This document shows positions 2,181 through 63,706 of a stretch of 64,000 nucleotides of DNA, piece after piece. A program made the position numbers and the translations under genes. The stretch lies in contig CBDBZU010000004.1 of assembly GCA_965213625.1 (NCBI GenBank), positions 3,904,001 to 3,968,000 on the forward strand. Direction: 5' to 3'. The stretch's first letter is position 1. Each line of letters begins with the position of its first letter. The DNA is from a bacterium (GTDB lineage: Bacteria; UBA8248). The notes under the pieces were generated by a model. It was not told where the DNA came from, searched no databases, and saw only the letters and a list, made by a program, of their open reading frames with translations.

Positions 2181-2894
2181 TCAGGCGTTCAGCACGGCGA
2201 TCGCCCGGATCGGCGAGCCCGACCCGCCCGTAATCTTGAGCGGAAGCCCAATGTAGAGAAACTCCTTGCCCACCACCAGCTCGATGTTGCACAGGTTCTC
2301 CGTGTTCGTGCGGCCCAGTTCGCGGCAAACGAGGTGGCAGGGATAGTCCGGGCTGGTCGCCATGTCCATACTCGGGGCGTCGGTGCCCACGTTGATGGCC
2401 CCGCACTCGCCGTAGACGTACTCGGCCGCTTCGCGCGTCCAGCCTGCGTAGGCCGTCGTGTACTTCGGCGTCGGGTGGTGGCGCTTGAAGTGTCCATACG
2501 TGTAGAGGAGCGTATCGCCAGGCTTCAGCTCGTAATTGTAATGGTCGAGCCTGCGCTTCACGTCGTCCGCGTCGATGTAGCTGTTGTCTTCGACGTTTTC
2601 GAAATCAATCGCGATGCCCCGGCTGTAGAAGGAATCGAAATTCATCTCGTCGATGTGCGGCGCATCGGGCGAGGGGTCGAGATGGCTGATGGAATCCACG
2701 TGCGTAGGGCCATGCTCGCAGAACTGGATGATGCCCGAGTAATAGCTCATCTCGCTCTTGAAGCGGCCGCTGGCGGCGCTTTCCTCGTGCGTCATGTTCG
2801 TCCAGCGCCAGGTCTCGGGGTGCCCCACGAACACGGGCTGTCCCTGGTAGATGTCTTGCGAGAGATCAACGATTTCGTGATTCTTGTACGCCAT
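2181..2894 (-). CDS. Cyclase family metal hydrolase (KynB-like)
   Basis: HGPTHVDSISH metal motif, ENLCN, PLKITGGSGSPIRAIA. Confidence 0.85.
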   Translation of the reverse strand: MAYKNHEIVDLSQDIYQGQPVFVGHPETWRWTNMTHEESAASGRFKSEMSYYSGIIQFCEHGPTHVDSISHLDPSPDAPHIDEMNFDSFYSRGIAIDFENVEDNSYIDADDVKRRLDHYNYELKPGDTLLYTYGHFKRHHPTPKYTTAYAGWTREAAEYVYGECGAINVGTDAPSMDMATSPDYPCHLVCRELGRTNTENLCNIELVVGKEFLYIGLPLKITGGSGSPIRAIAVLNA

Positions 2895-3052
2895 GGTGAT
2901 TCTCCTCCGGCATGTACCGCTATAGGTGAACTGTTCGAATCCTTGCGATTCGCTGCTTGAAGCACGTCTTTTGATTCAGGCCAAAACCGGCGAAACGACT
3001 TGCCCGTTTCCGGGTTTCATCTGGGAAAATTCGTGGGTTTTGAGCGCTTTTG

Positions 3053-3081
3053 ATATTAGAGTCGGGGTGAATCCTTGTCAA
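3053..3081 (-). promoter_or_regulatory. sigma70-type promoter for the cyclase operon
   Basis: TTGACA-17 nt-TAATAT on the minus strand. Confidence 0.6.
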
Positions 3082-3228
3082 CGGAATGGCTTGGGGGCGC
3101 GCCCGCCCGCCTTTCGCCGGAATGGCAAGGGCGAACCCGCGCGTCCGCCCCGATAGGGGCTTGTCGAAAAACACCTTAAAGGTTGGGTTTAATCTCTCGA
3201 GGGCCTTGAAGTTCACTCCCCCCTTGAG

Positions 3229-4748
3229 GGGGCTGTTGAAAAACCCCCGGCATTGTGATTGGGTGTAATGACACTATCTCGCCCGAGATGGGAGTTCCCT
3301 CGATGATAGGCAGCAAGAGGCGCGAGCAGATGGATTTGTTCGTGGCCGGTTCGCTGGATCGGCTGATCCCCGAGGATCACGTCCTGATGCGCGTGGACCG
3401 CGTACTGGATTTGAGTTGGCTTCGTGAGGAGGTGGCGGATTGCTATTGCGCGGACAATGGTCGACCGGGGATCGACCCGGAGGTGGCGCTCCGCTTGATG
3501 CTTGCGGGTATGTTGCTGGGCTACGTACACGACCGGCGTCTGCTTCGCGAGGCGCGTGCGCACCTGGCGATCCGGTGGTTCATCGGGTACGGGCTGCACG
3601 AGGATTTGCCGCATCATTCGAGCCTGACGCGGATTCGTCAGCGGTGGGGGGAGGCTCGGTTCAAGGAGATATTCCGTCGCACGGTGCAGGCTTGCCTGGA
3701 GGCGAATGTGGCGAAGGGGGAAGTGGTACACGTGGACGCCTCGTTGATACGCGCGGACGTGAGCTGGGAGAGTCTGGCGGCGCACCACGCGGAGAAGGTG
3801 ATTCGGGAGAATCCCGTCGATGATGAGGGGGAGAAGAAGGGAGGAGGCCGCGGTGGCGGGGGTCGGGTGAGCCGGACGGACCCGGACGCGCGGCTTGCGC
3901 GCAAGAGCGCGCGGGCGGGGTTCGAGCCGAGCTACAAGCAGCACGCGGCGGTGGACGATGAGCGGGGTGTTGTTCTCGACGTGTCGGTGACGGAGGGGAC
4001 GCGGAACGAGCGTGAGATGATGGCGTCCCATATAGAGGCGGTAAGCGAGTTGTCGGGCCGCGCGCCGGAGATGGTGACGGCGGATTCGGGCTACGCGTAC
4101 TCGAAGGTTTATGGCGAATTGGAGCGGCGGGGCGTGGAAGCGCTGATACCAGCGAAGAAGGAACCCAGCCAGAGCCGTGTTCCGCTGCAGTTGTTCCACT
4201 ACGACGCGCGCAACGAGGTGGTGAAGTGTCCGGGAGGCAAGACGCTGCGCCCCCGGCAGGCGACGGAGCGGGGGCGCTCCTATGTATCGAAGACGCGGGA
4301 TTGCGCGGGCTGCGCGCTCCGTGCGGATTGTCTGTCGAAGTCGCGCACGAGCAGGACGGTGTTGATTCCGCACGCGTATCCGGCGCTGTTGCGCGCGCGT
4401 CGGCGGCATGCGCGCTGGGGGGAGGAGGAGAAGCGTCTCTATGGCCGCCACCGTTGGCGCTCGGAGGGCTACCACGGCGAGGCGAAGAGCCGGCACGGAC
4501 TGGGGCGGGCGGTGCGCCGGGGCCTTGCGAACATGCGGATCCAGTCCTACCTGACGGCGATAGCGGTGAACCTCAAGCGGCTGGCCGCCGCTTTTGCGGC
4601 GCGTATATTCGCCCTCTGGACGGCCTGTGCCGCCCGGAGACGCCGGCTGCGCGCACATGGCGCCCTCACGCGCCAATTGGGCTGCCTCCCCGCCGCCGCG
4701 TGAGCCGCCAAAACGCCCGCTTCCAACACCGGGTTTTTCAACAGACCC
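3229..4748 (+). mobile_element. IS1182-family insertion sequence
   Basis: 18-bp IRs: GGGGCTGTTGAAAAACCC (3229-3246) and reverse complement GGGTCTGTTGAAAAACCC (4731-4748). Flanking direct repeat TTGAG (3224-3228, 4749-4753). Single transposase ORF. Confidence 0.85.
3303..4703 (+). CDS. IS1182-family DDE transposase
   Basis: SLDRLIPEDH, GRPGIDP, LPHHSSL, VDAS, ADSGY, Cys cluster CAGCALRADC, RWRSEGYHGEAK; ATG at 3303. Confidence 0.9.
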   Translation: MIGSKRREQMDLFVAGSLDRLIPEDHVLMRVDRVLDLSWLREEVADCYCADNGRPGIDPEVALRLMLAGMLLGYVHDRRLLREARAHLAIRWFIGYGLHEDLPHHSSLTRIRQRWGEARFKEIFRRTVQACLEANVAKGEVVHVDASLIRADVSWESLAAHHAEKVIRENPVDDEGEKKGGGRGGGGRVSRTDPDARLARKSARAGFEPSYKQHAAVDDERGVVLDVSVTEGTRNEREMMASHIEAVSELSGRAPEMVTADSGYAYSKVYGELERRGVEALIPAKKEPSQSRVPLQLFHYDARNEVVKCPGGKTLRPRQATERGRSYVSKTRDCAGCALRADCLSKSRTSRTVLIPHAYPALLRARRRHARWGEEEKRLYGRHRWRSEGYHGEAKSRHGLGRAVRRGLANMRIQSYLTAIAVNLKRLAAAFAARIFALWTACAARRRRLRAHGALTRQLGCLPAAA

Positions 4749-5083
4749 TTGAGGGGGAGTCGCAGAAGCCGAGCTTTTTTTGCGAAGGCTGATGCGGTGG
4801 GGGGTGAATCGCGTTTTATCGCCACTCCGAATCATACCCCCCACCAGTTCACTTTCGGGCTTACACCCTCAGTTCACTGTCTGGCTTTCCCCTCGGGAAG
4901 CCAGACCCTCAAGGGGGAATGAACTTCAAAGGCGTTCGCGCAACCCAAATTCGCTTGCCGAGGGTTTTTCAACAGCCTTGGACAAGGGGGGGGTAGGGGG
5001 GGTGACTCTATGGAGTTTCCCTTTCAAGGGGGTTGCCTTTACCCACTCACAGGACTTTTCTCAACAACCCCGCCCGCCTGGAA

Positions 5084-5113
5084 TTGACATCTAAAAGCCC
5101 GCCTACTTACCAT
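5084..5113 (+). promoter_or_regulatory. Possible sigma70 promoter for mocA-ADH-hpt
   Basis: TTGACA-18 nt-TACCAT. Confidence 0.4.
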
Positions 5114-5156
5114 GCCGACCAGGCTTCAGTCCTTTCTCTCGTTACGGAGAATTTCA

Positions 5157-5777
5157 ATGGCGGACGCGCGCCGCGTCACGGCGATCCTGCTCGCCGCAGG
5201 TCTCTCGAAGCGCCTGGGGCGGAACAAACTCCTCCTGCCCCTCGGGGATGAGACCGTCGTCCGCAAAACGGCGAAAGCGGTGCTCGCGAGCGCTGTTACA
5301 GAAGTCATCCTCGTGACGGGCCATGAGGAGGCGATGGTGAAACAGGCCGTGGCTGGTCTGAACGTGCGCCTCGCGCACAACCCACGCTACGCCGAGGGCC
5401 AGAGCACGAGCATGATCGCAGGAATCGAGGCGGCGAAAGAGGATACCGAAGCCTATCTATTCGTTCTGGGCGATCAGCCCCTGCTGACGCCGGGAATCGT
5501 GAACGAGGTGATTTCCCTTTATAAGAGGTCCCGGCCCGACGCCCTTGTCGCGGCGCCGGCCTACGGGGGCAGGCGCGGGAACCCCACGCTGTTCTCAGCT
5601 GAACTCAAAGACGAATTGCTCCGGACGAGCGGCGATGCGGGCGGCAGGGGAATCATCCGGAGACTGGAAAACGAATCTCCGGGGGCGATCGTATTTCACC
5701 ACCTGCCCAATGATGATATCTTTCTCGACATCGACACGGAAAAAGATTACGAATCCATGCTTCGTAAATTCCAATAA
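5157..5777 (+). CDS. Molybdenum cofactor cytidylyltransferase-like nucleotidyltransferase (MocA/YgfJ)
   Basis: LLAAGLSKRLG, NKLLL, LGDQP, GNP, GDAGGR, DIDT motifs; GGAG SD before ATG 5157. Confidence 0.85.
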   Translation: MADARRVTAILLAAGLSKRLGRNKLLLPLGDETVVRKTAKAVLASAVTEVILVTGHEEAMVKQAVAGLNVRLAHNPRYAEGQSTSMIAGIEAAKEDTEAYLFVLGDQPLLTPGIVNEVISLYKRSRPDALVAAPAYGGRRGNPTLFSAELKDELLRTSGDAGGRGIIRRLENESPGAIVFHHLPNDDIFLDIDTEKDYESMLRKFQ

Positions 5778-5807
5778 TCCTCAGACGAGCAGCGAAGGAG
5801 TGTATTC

Positions 5808-6950
5808 ATGGTGAAAGCGTTTCAGATTGCATCCGGCCCGCGCGTCCGCTTCGGCCGCGGAGAAGCCACCCAAATCGGAGGGGAAGCGAAGGGCCTGGGG
5901 ATGGCGAAACCGATGCTCGTCACCGACCCGGGACTCGCGTCGAGCGGGGCGCTCGATTCGGTCATCAAGGGCCTCGAAGACGGCTCTATCGACTACCAGT
6001 TCTACGATCAGGCCGAGGCGAATCCCTCGGACGCCAGCATCCTCGCGGCGCGTGATTTCTTCAACAGCCAAGGATGCGACGGCTTCATCGCCGCGGGCGG
6101 CGGCAGCACGATGGACACCGCCAAGGCGACTCTCGCCATTGTCGCGAACGGCGGCGTGCCGAGCGACTACTATGGACGCGGCAAGGCCACGAAGCCCGGC
6201 CCGCCGCTCATCACCGTTCCCACCACGGCGGGCACGGGCAGCGAAGTCACCATGAGTTCCATCGTCACGGACATGAAGCTCATGATCAAAACCGTCCTGG
6301 CGGACGACACGCTCTTCGCGAAACTCGCGGTCGTCGACTCCGCGCTCCTGGCCAAGCTTCCCTCCCACATCGCCGCAGGCGCGATGATGGACGCCCTGAC
6401 CCACGCCATCGAATCGGTCGGCTCGCCCGCCTCCAACCCCTGGACGGAGGCGATTGCGTTTCAGTCGATCACCTATATCGGAAAGCACGGGAGAACCTAC
6501 GTGGACGACCCGTCCGACCCGGAAGCCGCCGACGGCATATCGCTTGCGGCCATGTTGGCGGGACGCGCGTTCACCAACACGGGACTCGGCATCGTGCACT
6601 CGCTCGCGCATCCGCTCGGCGCCTACCACGGGCTGCATCACGGCACGGCGAACGGCATCTTCCTGCCGCCCGTCATGGAGTTCAACCTCCCCGTTATGCG
6701 GGAGGCCTACGCGCGCATGGCGCCGCTCTTGAAAGAAGGCGCCCCGAACACGGCCGAGGCGGCGATAGACGCCATCCGCGAACTCAACACGGACATCGGC
6801 ATACCGGGCAGCTTGAGGGAGGCGGACGTCGTGAACGAGAATTTGGACGTCCTGGCGAAGGACGCGGCGGAAAGCCACCAGGTCAACACGAACCCGGTCC
6901 CCTCGACCCAGGAGGACCTGAAGGGCCTTCTACTGGCCGTGCTCGAGTAG
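5808..6950 (+). CDS. Iron-containing alcohol dehydrogenase
   Basis: GGGSTMDTAK, PTTAGTGSE, DALTHAIE, HSLAH, HG motifs. Confidence 0.9.
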   Translation: MVKAFQIASGPRVRFGRGEATQIGGEAKGLGMAKPMLVTDPGLASSGALDSVIKGLEDGSIDYQFYDQAEANPSDASILAARDFFNSQGCDGFIAAGGGSTMDTAKATLAIVANGGVPSDYYGRGKATKPGPPLITVPTTAGTGSEVTMSSIVTDMKLMIKTVLADDTLFAKLAVVDSALLAKLPSHIAAGAMMDALTHAIESVGSPASNPWTEAIAFQSITYIGKHGRTYVDDPSDPEAADGISLAAMLAGRAFTNTGLGIVHSLAHPLGAYHGLHHGTANGIFLPPVMEFNLPVMREAYARMAPLLKEGAPNTAEAAIDAIRELNTDIGIPGSLREADVVNENLDVLAKDAAESHQVNTNPVPSTQEDLKGLLLAVLE

Positions 6951-7475
6951 ATGATGCCTGCAACCGAGATACTGATACCGGAAGCGGACATCCAGAGCCG
7001 CCTTACGGAGCTCGCCGCCGAGATCAACGCGGTGCAGCCCGCCGGGCCGATCCACGTCGTCATGATACTGAAAGGCGCGATTATCTTCGGCGTCGACTTG
7101 GCCCGCGCCCTTGAGCGCAACACCACGCTCGGCTTCCTCACGGCCTCGAGCTACGGGGACGGAACGCAAAGCACGGGCCGGGTGGAGATCGACGCCAGAC
7201 ACCTGGGCGACATCGAGGGGCGGAACGTGCTGCTCATCGACGACATTCTCGATACGGGGCACACGTTCTCGAAAACCCTGGATATTCTTGGAGATAAGCG
7301 CCCCGCAACGCTTAGGACGTGCGTGTTGATGGACAAGCCTGAGAGGCGGGAAGTCGATATCCAGGCGGACCACGTGGGCTTCACCATCGAGAACCATTTT
7401 GTGGTCGGCTACGGGCTGGACTGCGATGAGGCGTACCGCACCCTGCCGGACATCCGCATCTATGCGCCCGAATGA
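6951..7475 (+). CDS. hpt: Hypoxanthine phosphoribosyltransferase
   Basis: ILKGA, SSYG, LLIDDILDTG PRPP loop, FVVGYGLD. Confidence 0.9.
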   Translation: MMPATEILIPEADIQSRLTELAAEINAVQPAGPIHVVMILKGAIIFGVDLARALERNTTLGFLTASSYGDGTQSTGRVEIDARHLGDIEGRNVLLIDDILDTGHTFSKTLDILGDKRPATLRTCVLMDKPERREVDIQADHVGFTIENHFVVGYGLDCDEAYRTLPDIRIYAPE

Positions 7476-7686
7476 GCGTTGCCCGAAGGAGACGAAGGGG
7501 CGGAGTGCGGATGAGGGGGGAGACAATACAATCCCTCCCCCCTTGAGGTGTCGGGCATCCCGAGGGGAATGCCCGATGAAAAAGTCCTCGTTGGGAGTGC
7601 GATGGTTTTGTAGGGACAGGTCGGAATTCATCACCGTCGTCATTTCGGTGTCAGACCCGATTGGGCGGAAATAACGAGAGAGGGAT

Positions 7687-7821
7687 GTAGGGGTCGCATA
7701 TATGCGACCCGTGATTTGATATCCGCCCTTTGGGGGTCATGGACGCGATTCGGGCGGGGGGATATTGCCATGAGCGTGGTTTTTGGTCCGTCCGCATGGG
7801 TCGCATATATGCGACCCCTAC
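7687..7821. repeat. REPIN-like inverted pair of GTAG-type REP palindromes
   Basis: GTAGGGGTCGCATATATGCGACCC (7687-7710) and its exact reverse complement (7798-7821). Confidence 0.8.
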
Positions 7822-7942
7822 AAATCAGAGTCGAACGCCCTACCCGGTCGGCTGCATACCTCGAATCATTAGAGTAAGGGCTTTTTCAAAAACCCCTCAA
7901 TCAACAAGGCCCCGGCCTTCCGTTCACACAGGAGATAGGTTT

Positions 7943-9046
7943 ATGCCAATTCAGGAGATAACGGTCTGGGATACCGCCGTGGAAGTCGATCAGGGATCCA
8001 GGAACCGCTACGGTGGCGCGTCTTTGCTTGAGCGCGTCGTGGTCCGCCTCACGAACGACGCAGGCGAAGAGGGCTGGGGCGAGGCGGCGCCTCTGATGTA
8101 CATCACCAAAGATACCGGTTCGGAGATGGCGGCCGCACTCCGCGAATCCGCCCCACGCGTAAGGGGAATGGAGGCGGATGAGCTGCTCGCCGCGTTCGAT
8201 GAGACGGTGGATTTCAAGGGAATGGGCGCCGCGCGCACCGCTCTCGAAATCGCCGCGGTCGACCTGTCCACCAAAACCAGCCAGGCGCCCTTCTCGCAAG
8301 TCTTCGGCGGGCACAAGAGAAACACCGTCACGCTTGATGCCCCCATCGGCCTCCTCCCTCCCGATGAAGCCGTCAAGAAGGCCGAACCGCTCGTGGCGCA
8401 AGGAGTCAAGACCCTCAAGGTGAAATCGGGCGTCGACATGGAGGCGGACGCCGAGCGCATCGAAAGGCTGCGCCAGCGATTCGGCCCCGACATCAAGCTG
8501 AGGACAGATGCCAACGGCGGTTTCACGCCCGAGGAGGCCCTGCGCTTCACGGACAGGATGATCGCGATCGACCTCGAGCACTTCGAGCAGCCCGTGCTTC
8601 CTTCAGAAGAAAAATGCCTCGACGTTTTCAGGGAAATTCGCGCCCGTGGGATGCAGGTCGCCCTGGATGAGTCGCTGTTCTCCATCGACGACGCGCGCCG
8701 CCTCGTCGACGCGGATGTCGTCGATATCGGCCTCATCAAGATCGCGAAATTCGGCGGCCCCCGGAACGCCTGGGAAGTGGCGCGGGTGTTCGACGCCGCA
8801 GGCAAGCCTGCCCTGCTCAGTTCGCCCTATGAATCCTACATCGCCAAATCGGCGGGCTTCGCCCTCGCGCTGTCTCTCGATGTTGCGGACAGGGCGCACG
8901 AACTCGCCCATCTGCTCGATGAGGAGCCATACGCCGAGTGGAGCCACTCCATTTCGGGCGGTGAGTTCACGCTGGCGGATACGCCCGGGCACGGGGCCAA
9001 AGGCATTCCCGCGCGCGTCGAGAAGATAGCCAGGGCCGCCGTATAA
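7943..9046 (+). CDS. Enolase superfamily enzyme (muconate-lactonizing/dipeptide epimerase subgroup)
   Basis: GWGEA, KVK, DANG, EQP, DES and downstream Lys; AGGAG SD before ATG 7943. Confidence 0.85.
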   Translation: MPIQEITVWDTAVEVDQGSRNRYGGASLLERVVVRLTNDAGEEGWGEAAPLMYITKDTGSEMAAALRESAPRVRGMEADELLAAFDETVDFKGMGAARTALEIAAVDLSTKTSQAPFSQVFGGHKRNTVTLDAPIGLLPPDEAVKKAEPLVAQGVKTLKVKSGVDMEADAERIERLRQRFGPDIKLRTDANGGFTPEEALRFTDRMIAIDLEHFEQPVLPSEEKCLDVFREIRARGMQVALDESLFSIDDARRLVDADVVDIGLIKIAKFGGPRNAWEVARVFDAAGKPALLSSPYESYIAKSAGFALALSLDVADRAHELAHLLDEEPYAEWSHSISGGEFTLADTPGHGAKGIPARVEKIARAAV

Positions 9047-9083
9047 CGAGAACAATCCCTACTTGCGCAGGAGAATGAACCCG

Positions 9084-9998
9084 ATGAGGTTCCCCACGAA
9101 GGTCGATATCGTCGAGGTAGGCACGCGGGACGGCCTCCAGAACGAAAAAACCTACATCACGCCCGAAGACAAGATAAGGCTTCTGGACACCATCACCGAC
9201 GCGGGCGTCCGCCGCATCGAGGTGACGAGTTTCGTGAGTCCCAAACACGTCCCGCAGCTCAGGGACGCGCAGGAGGTGCTGGCGGGTTGTAAGCGCAGCC
9301 CCGACGCCGAGTACGAGGCCCTCGTTCCCAACGTCCGCGGCATGGAGCGCGCCCTCGAATGCGAACTGGACGGCGTCATGCTGTTTGTCGCCGCCAGCGA
9401 GACGTTCAACCTGAAGAACATTCGCGCAAGCCGAAAGGAAATGCTAGGCGTCGCCCGCGAAGTGGCCAGGATGGCGCAGGATGCGGGCCTCAAGCTCAGG
9501 GGCGGCGTGGTCGCCACCTTCGGCTGCCCGTATGAGGGGCGCATCTCCGATGAGGACGTCGAGTGGGTGGTCGGCGAATACGTGGACATGGGCTGTGAGG
9601 AAATCGGCCTGGCCGATACCGTGGGCATGTCGAACCCGGCCGAAATCAAGAGGCTCACCAACCACATCCGCGACAAATTCCCCTCCGTCCGCTACGCGCT
9701 CCACCTCCACAACACGAGGGGAGCCGGCCTCGCCAACCTGCTGGCGGGCCTGGAAGCCGGCGTCGATACGTTCGACGCCTCCATCGGCGGCTTGGGCGGC
9801 TGCCCCTTCGCGCCGCGCGCCACCGGCAACATCTCGAGCGAGGACACGATCAACATGCTCCACGAGATGGGGATCGAGACGGGCGTCGACCTGCCGAAAT
9901 TACTCGAGGCCGTCGCCCACGCGGAGAAAGTCCTCGACCGCCAGCTACCGGGGCAACTCCTCCACGCCGGAATCCCCGAGTGGGAAATGGCGTCTTAG
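9084..9998 (+). CDS. HMG-CoA lyase family (DRE-TIM) enzyme
   Basis: EVGTRDGLQNE, FGCPYEG, LADTVG, LHLHNTRG, GLGGCPFAP, GN. Start chosen by SD spacing. Confidence 0.88.
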   Translation: MRFPTKVDIVEVGTRDGLQNEKTYITPEDKIRLLDTITDAGVRRIEVTSFVSPKHVPQLRDAQEVLAGCKRSPDAEYEALVPNVRGMERALECELDGVMLFVAASETFNLKNIRASRKEMLGVAREVARMAQDAGLKLRGGVVATFGCPYEGRISDEDVEWVVGEYVDMGCEEIGLADTVGMSNPAEIKRLTNHIRDKFPSVRYALHLHNTRGAGLANLLAGLEAGVDTFDASIGGLGGCPFAPRATGNISSEDTINMLHEMGIETGVDLPKLLEAVAHAEKVLDRQLPGQLLHAGIPEWEMAS

Positions 9999-62004: not shown

Positions 62005-62916
62005 ATGAGCGTCGACTCGAACGCCTACGGCGTATTGCTGGCTTCGATAGCCTCGACCGCCTGGGCGTTCTTTACCTATTTCATCAAGCGTGCGCTCATG
62101 AACGCGCCCGTCCTCAAAGTCACCGCCGCCGTCACGACCGTGAACGCGGCATTCGTGACGCTCATCGCACTCTTCTTCATCACGCCCGAGGACTTTCGGG
62201 GCGTCGCCACGATCACCTTCGTCTTCGCTTTTCTCGGGGGCTTTTTCCACATCGGCATATCGCGCTCGTTCTACTACCGCGCCATCCACCGCATCGGGCC
62301 GAACCGCTCCATTCCCATCGCGCTTACGTATCCCGCCGTAACAGCCGTCGTGGCGTCGTTCACGCTCGGCGAAACGCCGACGCTCTCCATAATCGCAGGC
62401 CTCGCGATTCTTCTCGTCGGCATCAAGCTCATCGTGCAGGCCGAACCCGCCCAGGAGTCGGAAACGAGCGCTCAAGACGCGAAATGGAAACTATTCGGCT
62501 GGATTTCCGCCGCCATCACCTCTCTGCTCTGGGGCGTGGCCGCCGTGTTCTTCAAAAAAGCGTCCCTGAACCTGCATCCGCTCGCCACCGCCGCGTTATC
62601 GCTCTGGGTGGGAGCCGCCACGGCCACGATGCTGATGGCGCTCGACAGGGGCGGCGAGGAATCGGGCGGCCCCATCCCCGCTTCGGCATGGATGTGGATT
62701 ATCGCCGCCGGCGCGTGCCAGACGATCGCCGTGCCGCTCTATAACTTCGCGTTCGTCCACACGCTGGCCGTGCGCGTGACGGCCATCGTCTCCGCCCAGC
62801 CGCTCATCGTCCTGCTGCTCGGCTGGCTCTTTCTCCGCGAGATGGAAAACATTACCCCCAGGCTCGTCCTTGGCGCGCTTTTGACCGTTGCAGGAACCAT
62901 CGTCGTCATCACTTAA
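62005..62916 (+). CDS. EamA/DMT-family transporter
   Basis: About 10 TM helices in two repeats, LGETP, FLREME. Confidence 0.85.
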   Translation: MSVDSNAYGVLLASIASTAWAFFTYFIKRALMNAPVLKVTAAVTTVNAAFVTLIALFFITPEDFRGVATITFVFAFLGGFFHIGISRSFYYRAIHRIGPNRSIPIALTYPAVTAVVASFTLGETPTLSIIAGLAILLVGIKLIVQAEPAQESETSAQDAKWKLFGWISAAITSLLWGVAAVFFKKASLNLHPLATAALSLWVGAATATMLMALDRGGEESGGPIPASAWMWIIAAGACQTIAVPLYNFAFVHTLAVRVTAIVSAQPLIVLLLGWLFLREMENITPRLVLGALLTVAGTIVVIT

Positions 62917-63013
62917 GGCCTGGAGAGTTCCCCTCGCCCCGGCGGGGTGCTACTCTTGTACGTCTAATCATCAAAGGAATATTTCGAAACCTCATCACGA
63001 GAAGGAGAGCAAG

Positions 63014-63490
63014 ATGGGCGAAGTCATTCACGTCACCAAGGCCCGCATCGTCAAGGAACCCGGCAAGGGAATGAAGACGGGCTATCTCGACGCCTTCCCC
63101 GACGAACCGATTCCCTACGGCATCCACGGGGGAATCAAGAACTTCTACAAGGCGGAACCCGAGGAGGAGCGTCCGGCCACGCTGGACCACCTCGCGGCCG
63201 CCGTCGCCGGCTGACTGACGGGCAACATGGGAGGCGCGCTGGATGCGCGCGGGATAAAGAGCAGCCCCGATAACCTCGTGGCGGAAGTCGAAGGCATCAT
63301 CGAGAACGTGGACGGCATGGCCCTGGTCACCAAGATCAAGGTGAACTACAAGTGCCGAATCCCCAAAGGAAAGCGAGAAGACGCCGAACGCGCCCTCGCC
63401 GTGCACGAGAAAGGCTGCCCGGCGAGCCAGAGCGTGCAGCGCGGCATCGAGGTCGAATACACGGCGGAGTTCGAGGAAGTGGACGAGTAG
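63014..63490 (+). CDS. OsmC/Ohr-family protein with in-frame TGA (probable selenocysteine)
   Basis: AAGGAG SD and ATG 63014; ...LDHLAAAVAG-TGA(63212-63214)-LTGNMGGAL... continues in frame to HEKGCPASQSV. Confidence 0.8.
63234..63250 (+). promoter_or_regulatory. Candidate bacterial SECIS hairpin
   Basis: GCGCGC-TGGAT-GCGCGC; loop starts 25 nt after the TGA, with G at loop position 2. Confidence 0.6.
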
Positions 63491-63513
63491 GCGTTTCTTG
63501 GGACAATGTTTCC

Positions 63514-63637
63514 GTAGGGGCGCATTGATGCGTCCGCCCGCATTGAGGATGAAACACGTAGGGACAGGTCGCGACCTGTCCCTACAAAATCTTTGCGCTT
63601 TCGTTATTTTGGGGCGGACACATCGGTCCGCCCCTAC
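63514..63637. repeat. REPIN-like GTAG-REP pair with a nested perfect 28-bp palindrome
   Basis: GTAGGGGCG..GTCCGCCC / GGGCGGAC..CGCCCCTAC enclosing GTAGGGACAGGTCGCGACCTGTCCCTAC (63558-63585). Confidence 0.75.
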
Positions 63638-63706
63638 GCGCCTCGTTCGAAAGAACTCCTCCTTCGTCAGTCGTAAGAATTCCTCGCTCTTCGATCGGAA
63701 TTCACC

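Follow-up and report, generated by a model that had tools for sequence, protein, structure and literature searches.

The 64,000-nucleotide stretch analyzed here (positions 3,904,001 to 3,968,000 of contig CBDBZU010000004.1, labelled G000:C4 below, assembly GCA_965213625.1; hereafter the window) very probably carries, at positions 63014 to 63490 of its forward strand, one intact stand-alone gene for a 158-residue selenoprotein of the OsmC/Ohr fold. The in-frame UGA at codon 67 of this gene is, in all likelihood, decoded as selenocysteine (Sec) at the catalytic site, a reading drawn from comparison of the sequence with its orthologues, with solved OsmC structures, and with published bacterial selenocysteine insertion sequence (SECIS) elements. 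OsmC-like selenoproteins have been known since 2005, and this kind of protein is therefore not new; the branch to which the window protein belongs, its conserved UGA-plus-hairpin segment, and its probable function are described below.

Gene structure and conservation of the in-frame UGA

The gene is visible in the window as two open reading frames (ORFs), 62888-63214 and 63227-63490, both on the plus strand and in the same frame, with TGA CTG ACG GGC AAC as their sole spacer. Reading through from the ATG at 63014, with TGA taken as Sec (U), yields 158 residues followed by the stop codon TAG at 63488-63490, exactly the two-ORF arrangement and 158-residue product that the initial annotation of this DNA had described. 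A Shine-Dalgarno-like AAGGAG (63002-63007, plus strand) lies 6 nt 5' of the ATG at 63014, and no comparable Shine-Dalgarno motif was seen on inspection of the sequence upstream of the internal ATG at 63227 (codon 72). The UGA itself (63212-63214, plus strand) is codon 67, in the context ...LDHLAAAVAG-U-LTGNMGG..., and coincides with the first (peroxidatic) catalytic Cys column of OsmC/Ohr proteins, as judged from the orthologue columns and the alignment to solved OsmC. The TGC at 63416-63418 (plus strand) is codon 135, in the context ...HEKGCPASQSV...; the alignments identify it as the Cys of the CP(A/V)S motif and the presumed resolving partner of Sec67. The initial annotation had proposed searching the read-through protein against PF02566 (OsmC), and the resulting match, which scored 48.7 bits (cut-off 27.5), extended over residues 53 to 149 and thus spans the UGA. 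The delimitation of one complete gene at 63014-63490 combines this match and the translation with the AlphaFold2, Foldseek, and substitution rate results presented below.

The gene was recovered from 33 of 41 related genomes searched, and each of the 34 matches contained exactly one TGA; the remaining eight genomes, two of the same class and six of other phyla, gave no gene match. An orthologue set was assembled from 30 related loci and 14 fetched regions which, with the genome matches, amounted to 64 in total. Twenty of these loci represented the same genomes twice, and after their removal (L046-L064 and L075) 44 distinct coding sequences were retained. TGA occupied the same column in all 64 fetched loci, that is, in 44 of 44 distinct orthologues with protein identities of 52 to 99%, and it was also found there in seven more distant Acidobacteriota-labelled loci (L099-L105). 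The motif U-[L/M]-T-G was present throughout the orthologues, the window protein having U-L-T-G. One genome (G025) contained two copies of the gene, L081 (70% identity to the query) and L083 (61%).

Cysteine counterparts of the protein also exist. Nine Cys-form loci (L090-L098) have TGC or TGT in the column, and two full-length homologues (P0023 and P0030, 48 to 49% identical) read AVAGCLTG, with Cys in place of Sec, so that homologues carry Cys or TGA at this position, in line with the comparison suggested in the initial annotation. Of the 404 cluster representatives, the best 150 included 73 sequences that spanned the Sec column, with 56 Cys, four Arg, four Ser, three Gly, two Trp, and one each of Phe, Asp, Ala, and a gap; the others were 29 pieces starting at residues 68 to 73, 27 ending by residue 67, and 21 other fragments. 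Several predicted full-length homologues (P0003, P0028, P0126, P0168, and others) showed Gly, Arg, or Trp at the column, and these residues probably stem from gene calls made under other genetic codes (4 or 25) or from errors.

Selection on the two halves of the gene was estimated from the ratio of nonsynonymous to synonymous substitution rates (dN/dS) in 12 orthologue pairs, each involving the window gene, with codons 1 to 66 taken as the N-terminal half and codons 68 to 156 as the C-terminal half. In 11 pairs, with dS between 0.3 and 1.1, dN/dS ranged from 0.036 to 0.188 in the N-terminal half and from 0.058 to 0.176 in the C-terminal half; the twelfth pair, with L081, gave a saturated dS for the N-terminal half and a dN/dS of 0.40 for the C-terminal half. 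Purifying selection therefore acts on both halves, and both are accordingly translated.

A SECIS-type hairpin and the selenocysteine machinery

Positions 63234 to 63250 (plus strand) can fold into a hairpin with a 6-bp stem, GCGCGC/GCGCGC, and a 5-nt loop, UGGAU (63240-63244), with a calculated stability of -11.4 kcal/mol for the hairpin alone. The loop begins 25 nt after the UGA, where the initial annotation had placed a SECIS-like element. According to a recent review (PMC13188914, Fig. 2A), the bacterial SECIS consensus comprises a loop of 3 to 9 nt, an upper stem of 4 to 16 bp, a UGA-to-loop distance of 16 to 37 nt, and a minimum free energy of -7.5 kcal/mol or lower; the same source gives the loop a G in its first two positions and the pattern N1-G-[G/U]-N-N2. 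The hairpin lies within every one of these published limits. Its identification draws on this consensus, on the fold, and on the synonymous constraint of the codons that encode it.

Several results nevertheless weigh against a SECIS at this site. The 64-nt stretch was no more stable than its shuffled counterparts (z = -0.37, with 64 of 200 shuffles folding at least as well), and among 2,000 mononucleotide shuffles, 130 (6.5%) produced some hairpin within the consensus limits and 26 produced one as stable. A scan of positions 62950 to 63700 with Rfam models at E values of up to 10 returned four chance-level matches, none of them SECIS-like. In addition, the covariation evidence is thin because the stem is nearly invariant, amounting to one double change (L102), one wobble (L105), G-C to G-U in 5 of 44 orthologues, and two replaced hairpins. 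Stability alone is thus uninformative, and the weight of the SECIS assignment comes from comparison.

That comparison begins with the codons that form the stem, for which synonymous entropy among the 44 orthologues was 0.18 (G74), 0 (A75), 0.16 (L76), 0 (A78), and 0.66 (R79), against a mean of 1.12 over 51 other conserved codons of at least four-fold degeneracy. The only other codon with an equally low value was G73, which adjoins the stem. The Arg at codon 79 was encoded by CGC in 38 orthologues, by CGT in five, and by CGG in one, and CGT retains the closing pair as G.U. A compensatory exchange of C-G for U-A was found in L102 (GCGUGC/GCACGC), where the 5' change also replaces Ala by Val, and L105 shows the U.G intermediate of this pair change. 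Two loci possess alternative hairpins a few bases upstream of the usual place, namely CGCUAGCG-GGGG-CGCUAGCG in L083 and CUCUAGC-CGGGAU-GCUAGAG in L103, both with stems of 7 to 8 bp, G-rich loops, and a spacing of 17 to 18 nt.

The consensus limits were also applied to 20 of the 44 orthologues, hand-picked for their hairpin variants, and to the seven Acidobacteriota Sec loci, the other 24 orthologues showing the same stem. All 27 of these Sec forms contained a hairpin within the limits, 25 of them at 25 to 26 nt. No Cys form (0 of 9) had a hairpin at 25 to 26 nt and only two had one anywhere (at 16 or 36 nt), a control that is narrow because the nine loci are close kin. Three contigs from run X20 (depth 9 to 104) matched the window only at 63208-63255, covering the UGA and the hairpin, and diverged on both sides, indicating that this is the most conserved nucleotide segment of the gene among distant relatives. 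By these comparisons, the hairpin is a SECIS-type element under RNA-level constraint.

The genome encodes the machinery that such an element would require. The initial annotation had predicted that selA, selB, selC, and selD would be present elsewhere in the genome, and all four were found: selA at 505 bits, a SelB wing domain at 78.3 bits, selD at 333 bits (L013, G000:C4:1518852-1519814), and a tRNA-Sec at C4:1431748-1431843, which was identified by ARAGORN and scored 75.9 bits in Rfam against a gathering score of 47. The selD gene itself contains an in-frame TGA and would encode a Sec-containing selenophosphate synthetase. The SelB wing-3 domain was detected twice with identical scores (78.3 bits), once in a 140-aa frame at the start of the contig (C4:265-405) and once in the 652-aa selB frame (C4:185022-185162); this repetition may reflect either duplication of a segment or overlap in the assembly.

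Putative catalytic function and alternative explanations

The structure of the read-through protein was modelled with AlphaFold2 on an alignment of 22 sequences (A2), giving a mean predicted local distance difference test score of 91.0 and a predicted template modelling (TM) score of 0.82. Foldseek returned 63 PDB matches at E values of 0.001 or lower, and all of the matches listed were OsmC, Ohr, OsmC-like, or unnamed structural-genomics proteins. They were led by Escherichia coli OsmC (1qwi), Thermoplasma Ta0195 (2onf), and Thermus thermophilus OsmC (1ukk), with TM scores of 0.70 to 0.85, followed by many Ohr structures. The nearest solved protein by sequence was likewise 1ukk (E = 7.7e-5 for the single protein and 1.6e-5 for the profile), in which U67 aligned with the first catalytic Cys (AAAHAGC) and C135 with the Cys of GCPVS; the UGA67 column also aligned to the first Cys of E. 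coli OsmC. Both U67 and C135 were invariant in A2, and they are 68 residues apart; the catalytic Cys pair of OsmC/Ohr proteins is reported to be separated by about 60 residues (PMC5384416).

From the anatomy of the gene, its conservation, and the machinery present, we infer that Sec is inserted at UGA67 in a SelB-dependent manner. The hairpin at 63234-63250 would act as the SECIS and recruit SelB with Sec-tRNA(Sec), so that the UGA would be decoded as Sec and not as a stop. Sec67 would then occupy the N terminus of the long helix bearing the peroxidatic Cys in OsmC/Ohr proteins, with Cys135 at the resolving position. In the putative catalytic cycle, the selenolate of Sec67 would attack a hydroperoxide to give a selenenic acid, which would condense with Cys135 into an intramolecular selenenylsulfide, and a dithiol reductant, possibly of the thioredoxin type, would reduce the latter. 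For Ohr/OsmC proteins, PMC5384416 describes a peroxidatic/resolving cycle of this kind, together with a dimeric active site and reduction by lipoyl groups. The initial annotation had named the product an OsmC-like peroxidase with a Sec/Cys redox pair. The OsmC-like selenoprotein and its Sec/Cys pair are borne out by the UGA column, C135, the Sec machinery, and the SECIS, whereas the term peroxidase is suggested by the fold together with this redox pair. Granted that the protein is a selenoprotein, a peroxidase function is, by analogy with its solved relatives, the somewhat better bet.

Other observations argue against the peroxidase assignment or leave it without a partner. Asp58 is invariant in A2 at the position where T. 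thermophilus OsmC carries Glu, and A2 contains no invariant Arg within residues 36 to 55. The catalytic Arg could not be placed, the PDB profile search having aligned only from residue 59 onward and the N-terminal 55 residues having no sequence alignment to solved OsmC, and homologues lacking both Arg and Glu ("Ohr-like") are described as poorly characterized in PMC5384416. Furthermore, the protein scored 28.6 bits for the OsmC subfamily TIGR03562 (cut-off 85.8) and 21 bits for the Ohr subfamily TIGR03561 (cut-off 88.85). The gene neighborhood is not conserved beyond close relatives and therefore names no reductant.

These features lend some credit to the idea that the protein is a selenoprotein other than a hydroperoxide reductase, in which Sec67 and Cys135 would take on a different redox or chalcogen-handling task, for instance that of a protein disulfide/selenenylsulfide oxidoreductase or of a sulfur or selenium carrier comparable to the uncharacterized third group of the OsmC superfamily. 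Conflicting activity results for one homologue without Arg and Glu (PMC5384416) point in the same direction, and so does the position of a paralogous OsmC-fold gene with Sec (L008, see below) beside a selD-like ORF, a hint that some of the OsmC-fold selenoproteins of this genome may be tied to selenium metabolism. However, the closest structures, both by sequence and by fold, are the true OsmC peroxidases 1ukk and 1qwi, both catalytic positions are retained at the same spacing, and the substitution of Asp for Glu is conservative. We consider this alternative a possible but clearly less probable description than a Sec-dependent peroxidase.

It is very improbable that UGA67 is instead read as an ordinary residue (Trp, Cys, or Gly) through near-cognate decoding or a reassigned code, although Trp, Gly, or Arg at the Sec column of some database proteins is what callers using other codes would produce. 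TGA is the commonest stop in this genome, closing 711 of the 1,505 open frames that are 400 codons or longer, so that the code is not reassigned, and it also terminates this very gene in many orthologues. The UCA anticodon occurs only in the tRNA-Sec, the tRNA-Trp having CCA, and the complete Sec machinery is present. Moreover, a conserved SECIS-type hairpin accompanies TGA, whereas the TGC and TGT forms have none at that spacing.

Still less credible is a pseudogene (a Cys-type OsmC gene broken by a nonsense mutation), a sequencing error, or a pair of small independent genes, for which the splitting of the frame under translation table 11 and the separate halves in public gene calls could be cited, but which is contradicted by the TGA in every distinct orthologue, by purifying selection on both halves, by an internal ATG that lacks a Shine-Dalgarno motif and whose Met is shared by only 36 of the 44 orthologues, and by an OsmC fold that needs both halves. 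In runs X1 and X4, Logan contigs (at depths of 50.8 and 187.2, respectively) showed 0 differences over 62900-63586, a result that mainly shows consistency because the sample from which the window came may be among these runs; together with the same TGA in the loci of 43 other genomes, this excludes the sequencing error that the initial annotation had allowed for.

Contigs from RNA libraries of two studies bridged both the UGA and the hairpin, namely record 9 of X19 (63014-63357, 16 differences) and record 16 of X20 (63107-63352, 17 differences), and neither the UGA (63212-63214) nor the interval from 63209 to 63270 has a listed difference. The two contigs derive from relatives and cover nothing outside the gene, that of X19 ending at 63357, and they give a weak hint that the gene is transcribed as a single unit, weak because DNA carry-over is possible in RNA libraries.

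The gene is preceded by an ORF for a 303-aa membrane protein (62005-62916, plus strand; EamA occupies the corresponding position in L077) and followed by a convergent sodium:solute symporter gene from 63707 onward (minus strand), with a family match of 73.5 bits at L026:2197-3453. Flanking genes were surveyed as 38 ORFs from nine loci, 14 of which had no family and some of which were spurious antisense frames picked in GC-rich DNA. The EamA-type/symporter arrangement was confined to close relatives; distant loci showed TetR, ferrochelatase, an AMP-binding enzyme, and others. A promoter scan found none, and its one terminator-like site was a palindromic repeat at 63557-63586. This perfect palindrome, GGGACAGGTCGCGACCTGTCCC (core at 63561-63582), is intergenic and lies 3' of the gene; its 22-nt core has 56 copies in the genome, and contig depth there rises from about 50-190 to 2,200-9,650. 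It looks like a dispersed repeat of the repetitive extragenic palindromic type.

Paralogues and relation to known OsmC-like selenoproteins

The genome was found to contain five OsmC-fold genes with Sec predicted at the same column and three Cys forms, an unusually large commitment to redox defence based on selenium for one organism. Apart from the window gene, the Sec-column members, with one in-frame TGA each, are L003 (G000:C4:1639838-1640161), L005 (G000:C4:315694-316002), L007 (G000:C4:3821974-3822282), and L008 (G000:C4:1340360-1340665). L005, L007, and L008 scored 164 to 182 bits for NF041052 (cut-off 95 bits) and share the motif GFULLTQ; L003, at 60 bits, is below the cut-off. In all four, a hairpin whose loop reads GUA or GGA follows the UGA at about 20 nt, and the stems of L007 (UGCGCG/CGCGCA) and L008 (UGGGCG/CGCCCA) are one compensatory pair apart. 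BLASTP of the window protein against its seven paralogues detected no similarity below E = 0.07. Approximately 370 nt from L008 and on the same strand lies L014 (G000:C4:1339240-1339992, minus strand), a selD-like/AIR-synthase-like ORF with 92.9 bits for TIGR00476 (cut-off 125), and the two may form a selenium-related pair.

The initial annotation had noted that OsmC-like selenoproteins were already reported, and the relevant surveys bear this out: three such proteins (COG1765, motif UxxT) are described from the Sargasso Sea data (PMC1088965), and five, also with UxxT, from the Global Ocean Sampling data (PMC2398784). Table 1 of the 2026 catalogue (PMC13188914), which covers 119 families and subfamilies, has a single OsmC entry, PF02566, with UxxT. 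A selenoprotein specialist would accordingly find the present result unsurprising in kind.

By sequence comparison, the window protein nonetheless falls into an OsmC branch of its own, which is marked by A-x-U-[L/M]-T-G and includes both Sec and Cys forms. Sec forms were found under metagenome-assembled genome titles of Nitrospinota, Rokuibacteriota/Methylomirabilota, Tectomicrobia, and Acidobacteriota. The branch was not separately described in the literature searched or in the table of PMC13188914, though the survey supplements, which lay outside this search, may list it. Opinion could fall evenly on either side as to whether it represents a separate, uncatalogued subfamily of OsmC-fold selenoproteins, one characterized by A-x-U-[L/M]-T-G, by Asp in place of Glu, by its own N terminus, and by a 40-nt UGA-plus-SECIS cassette that is near-identical across at least four phylum titles and is lost in the Acidobacteriota Cys forms. 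If so, the branch would deserve its own family model and would offer a clean natural system for Sec-to-Cys switching, and a ready-made UGA/SECIS module might have spread horizontally.

The expectation of the initial annotation that gene-calling pipelines would split this gene agrees with the public records. Among the best 120 of 345 database homologues, nearly all entries from the branch were C-terminal pieces of 86 to 90 aa, named "OsmC family protein," "organic hydroperoxide reductase OsmC/OhrA," "uncharacterized OsmC-like protein," or "hypothetical protein," so that public proteomes lack both the catalytic residue and the first 67 residues of the protein. A selenoprotein model built for the branch would mend hundreds of such records and would raise the selenoproteome counts of lineages labelled Nitrospinota, Methylomirabilota, and Acidobacteriota.

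Compared with the lipoyl-dependent Ohr peroxidases (6ebg, 1n2f, and 1zb9), the window protein has the same fold and a two-residue redox center, while the Arg of the first loop of Ohr was not identified in it. The resemblance to the OsmC peroxidases 1UKK and 1QWI/1NYE is closer, in that both catalytic Cys columns align, GCP(A/V)S is common to all, and TM scores are 0.70 to 0.78; the differences lie in the predicted Sec in place of the first Cys, in Asp58 in place of Glu, and in the region that bears the Arg in solved OsmC, which at the N terminus of the window protein is unalignable by sequence. With the "OsmC-related (seleno)protein" family NF041052, it shares the superfamily and fold, Sec at the homologous column, a downstream SECIS, and the existence of Cys homologues. 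The window protein nevertheless falls outside that family (18.8 bits against the cut-off of 95), and its U-[L/M]-T-G and N-terminal region differ from the UxxT motif and N terminus of the known OsmC-like selenoproteins. The distinction extends to the RNA element, with a SECIS loop of UGGAN in this branch and of GUA in the NF041052 paralogues.

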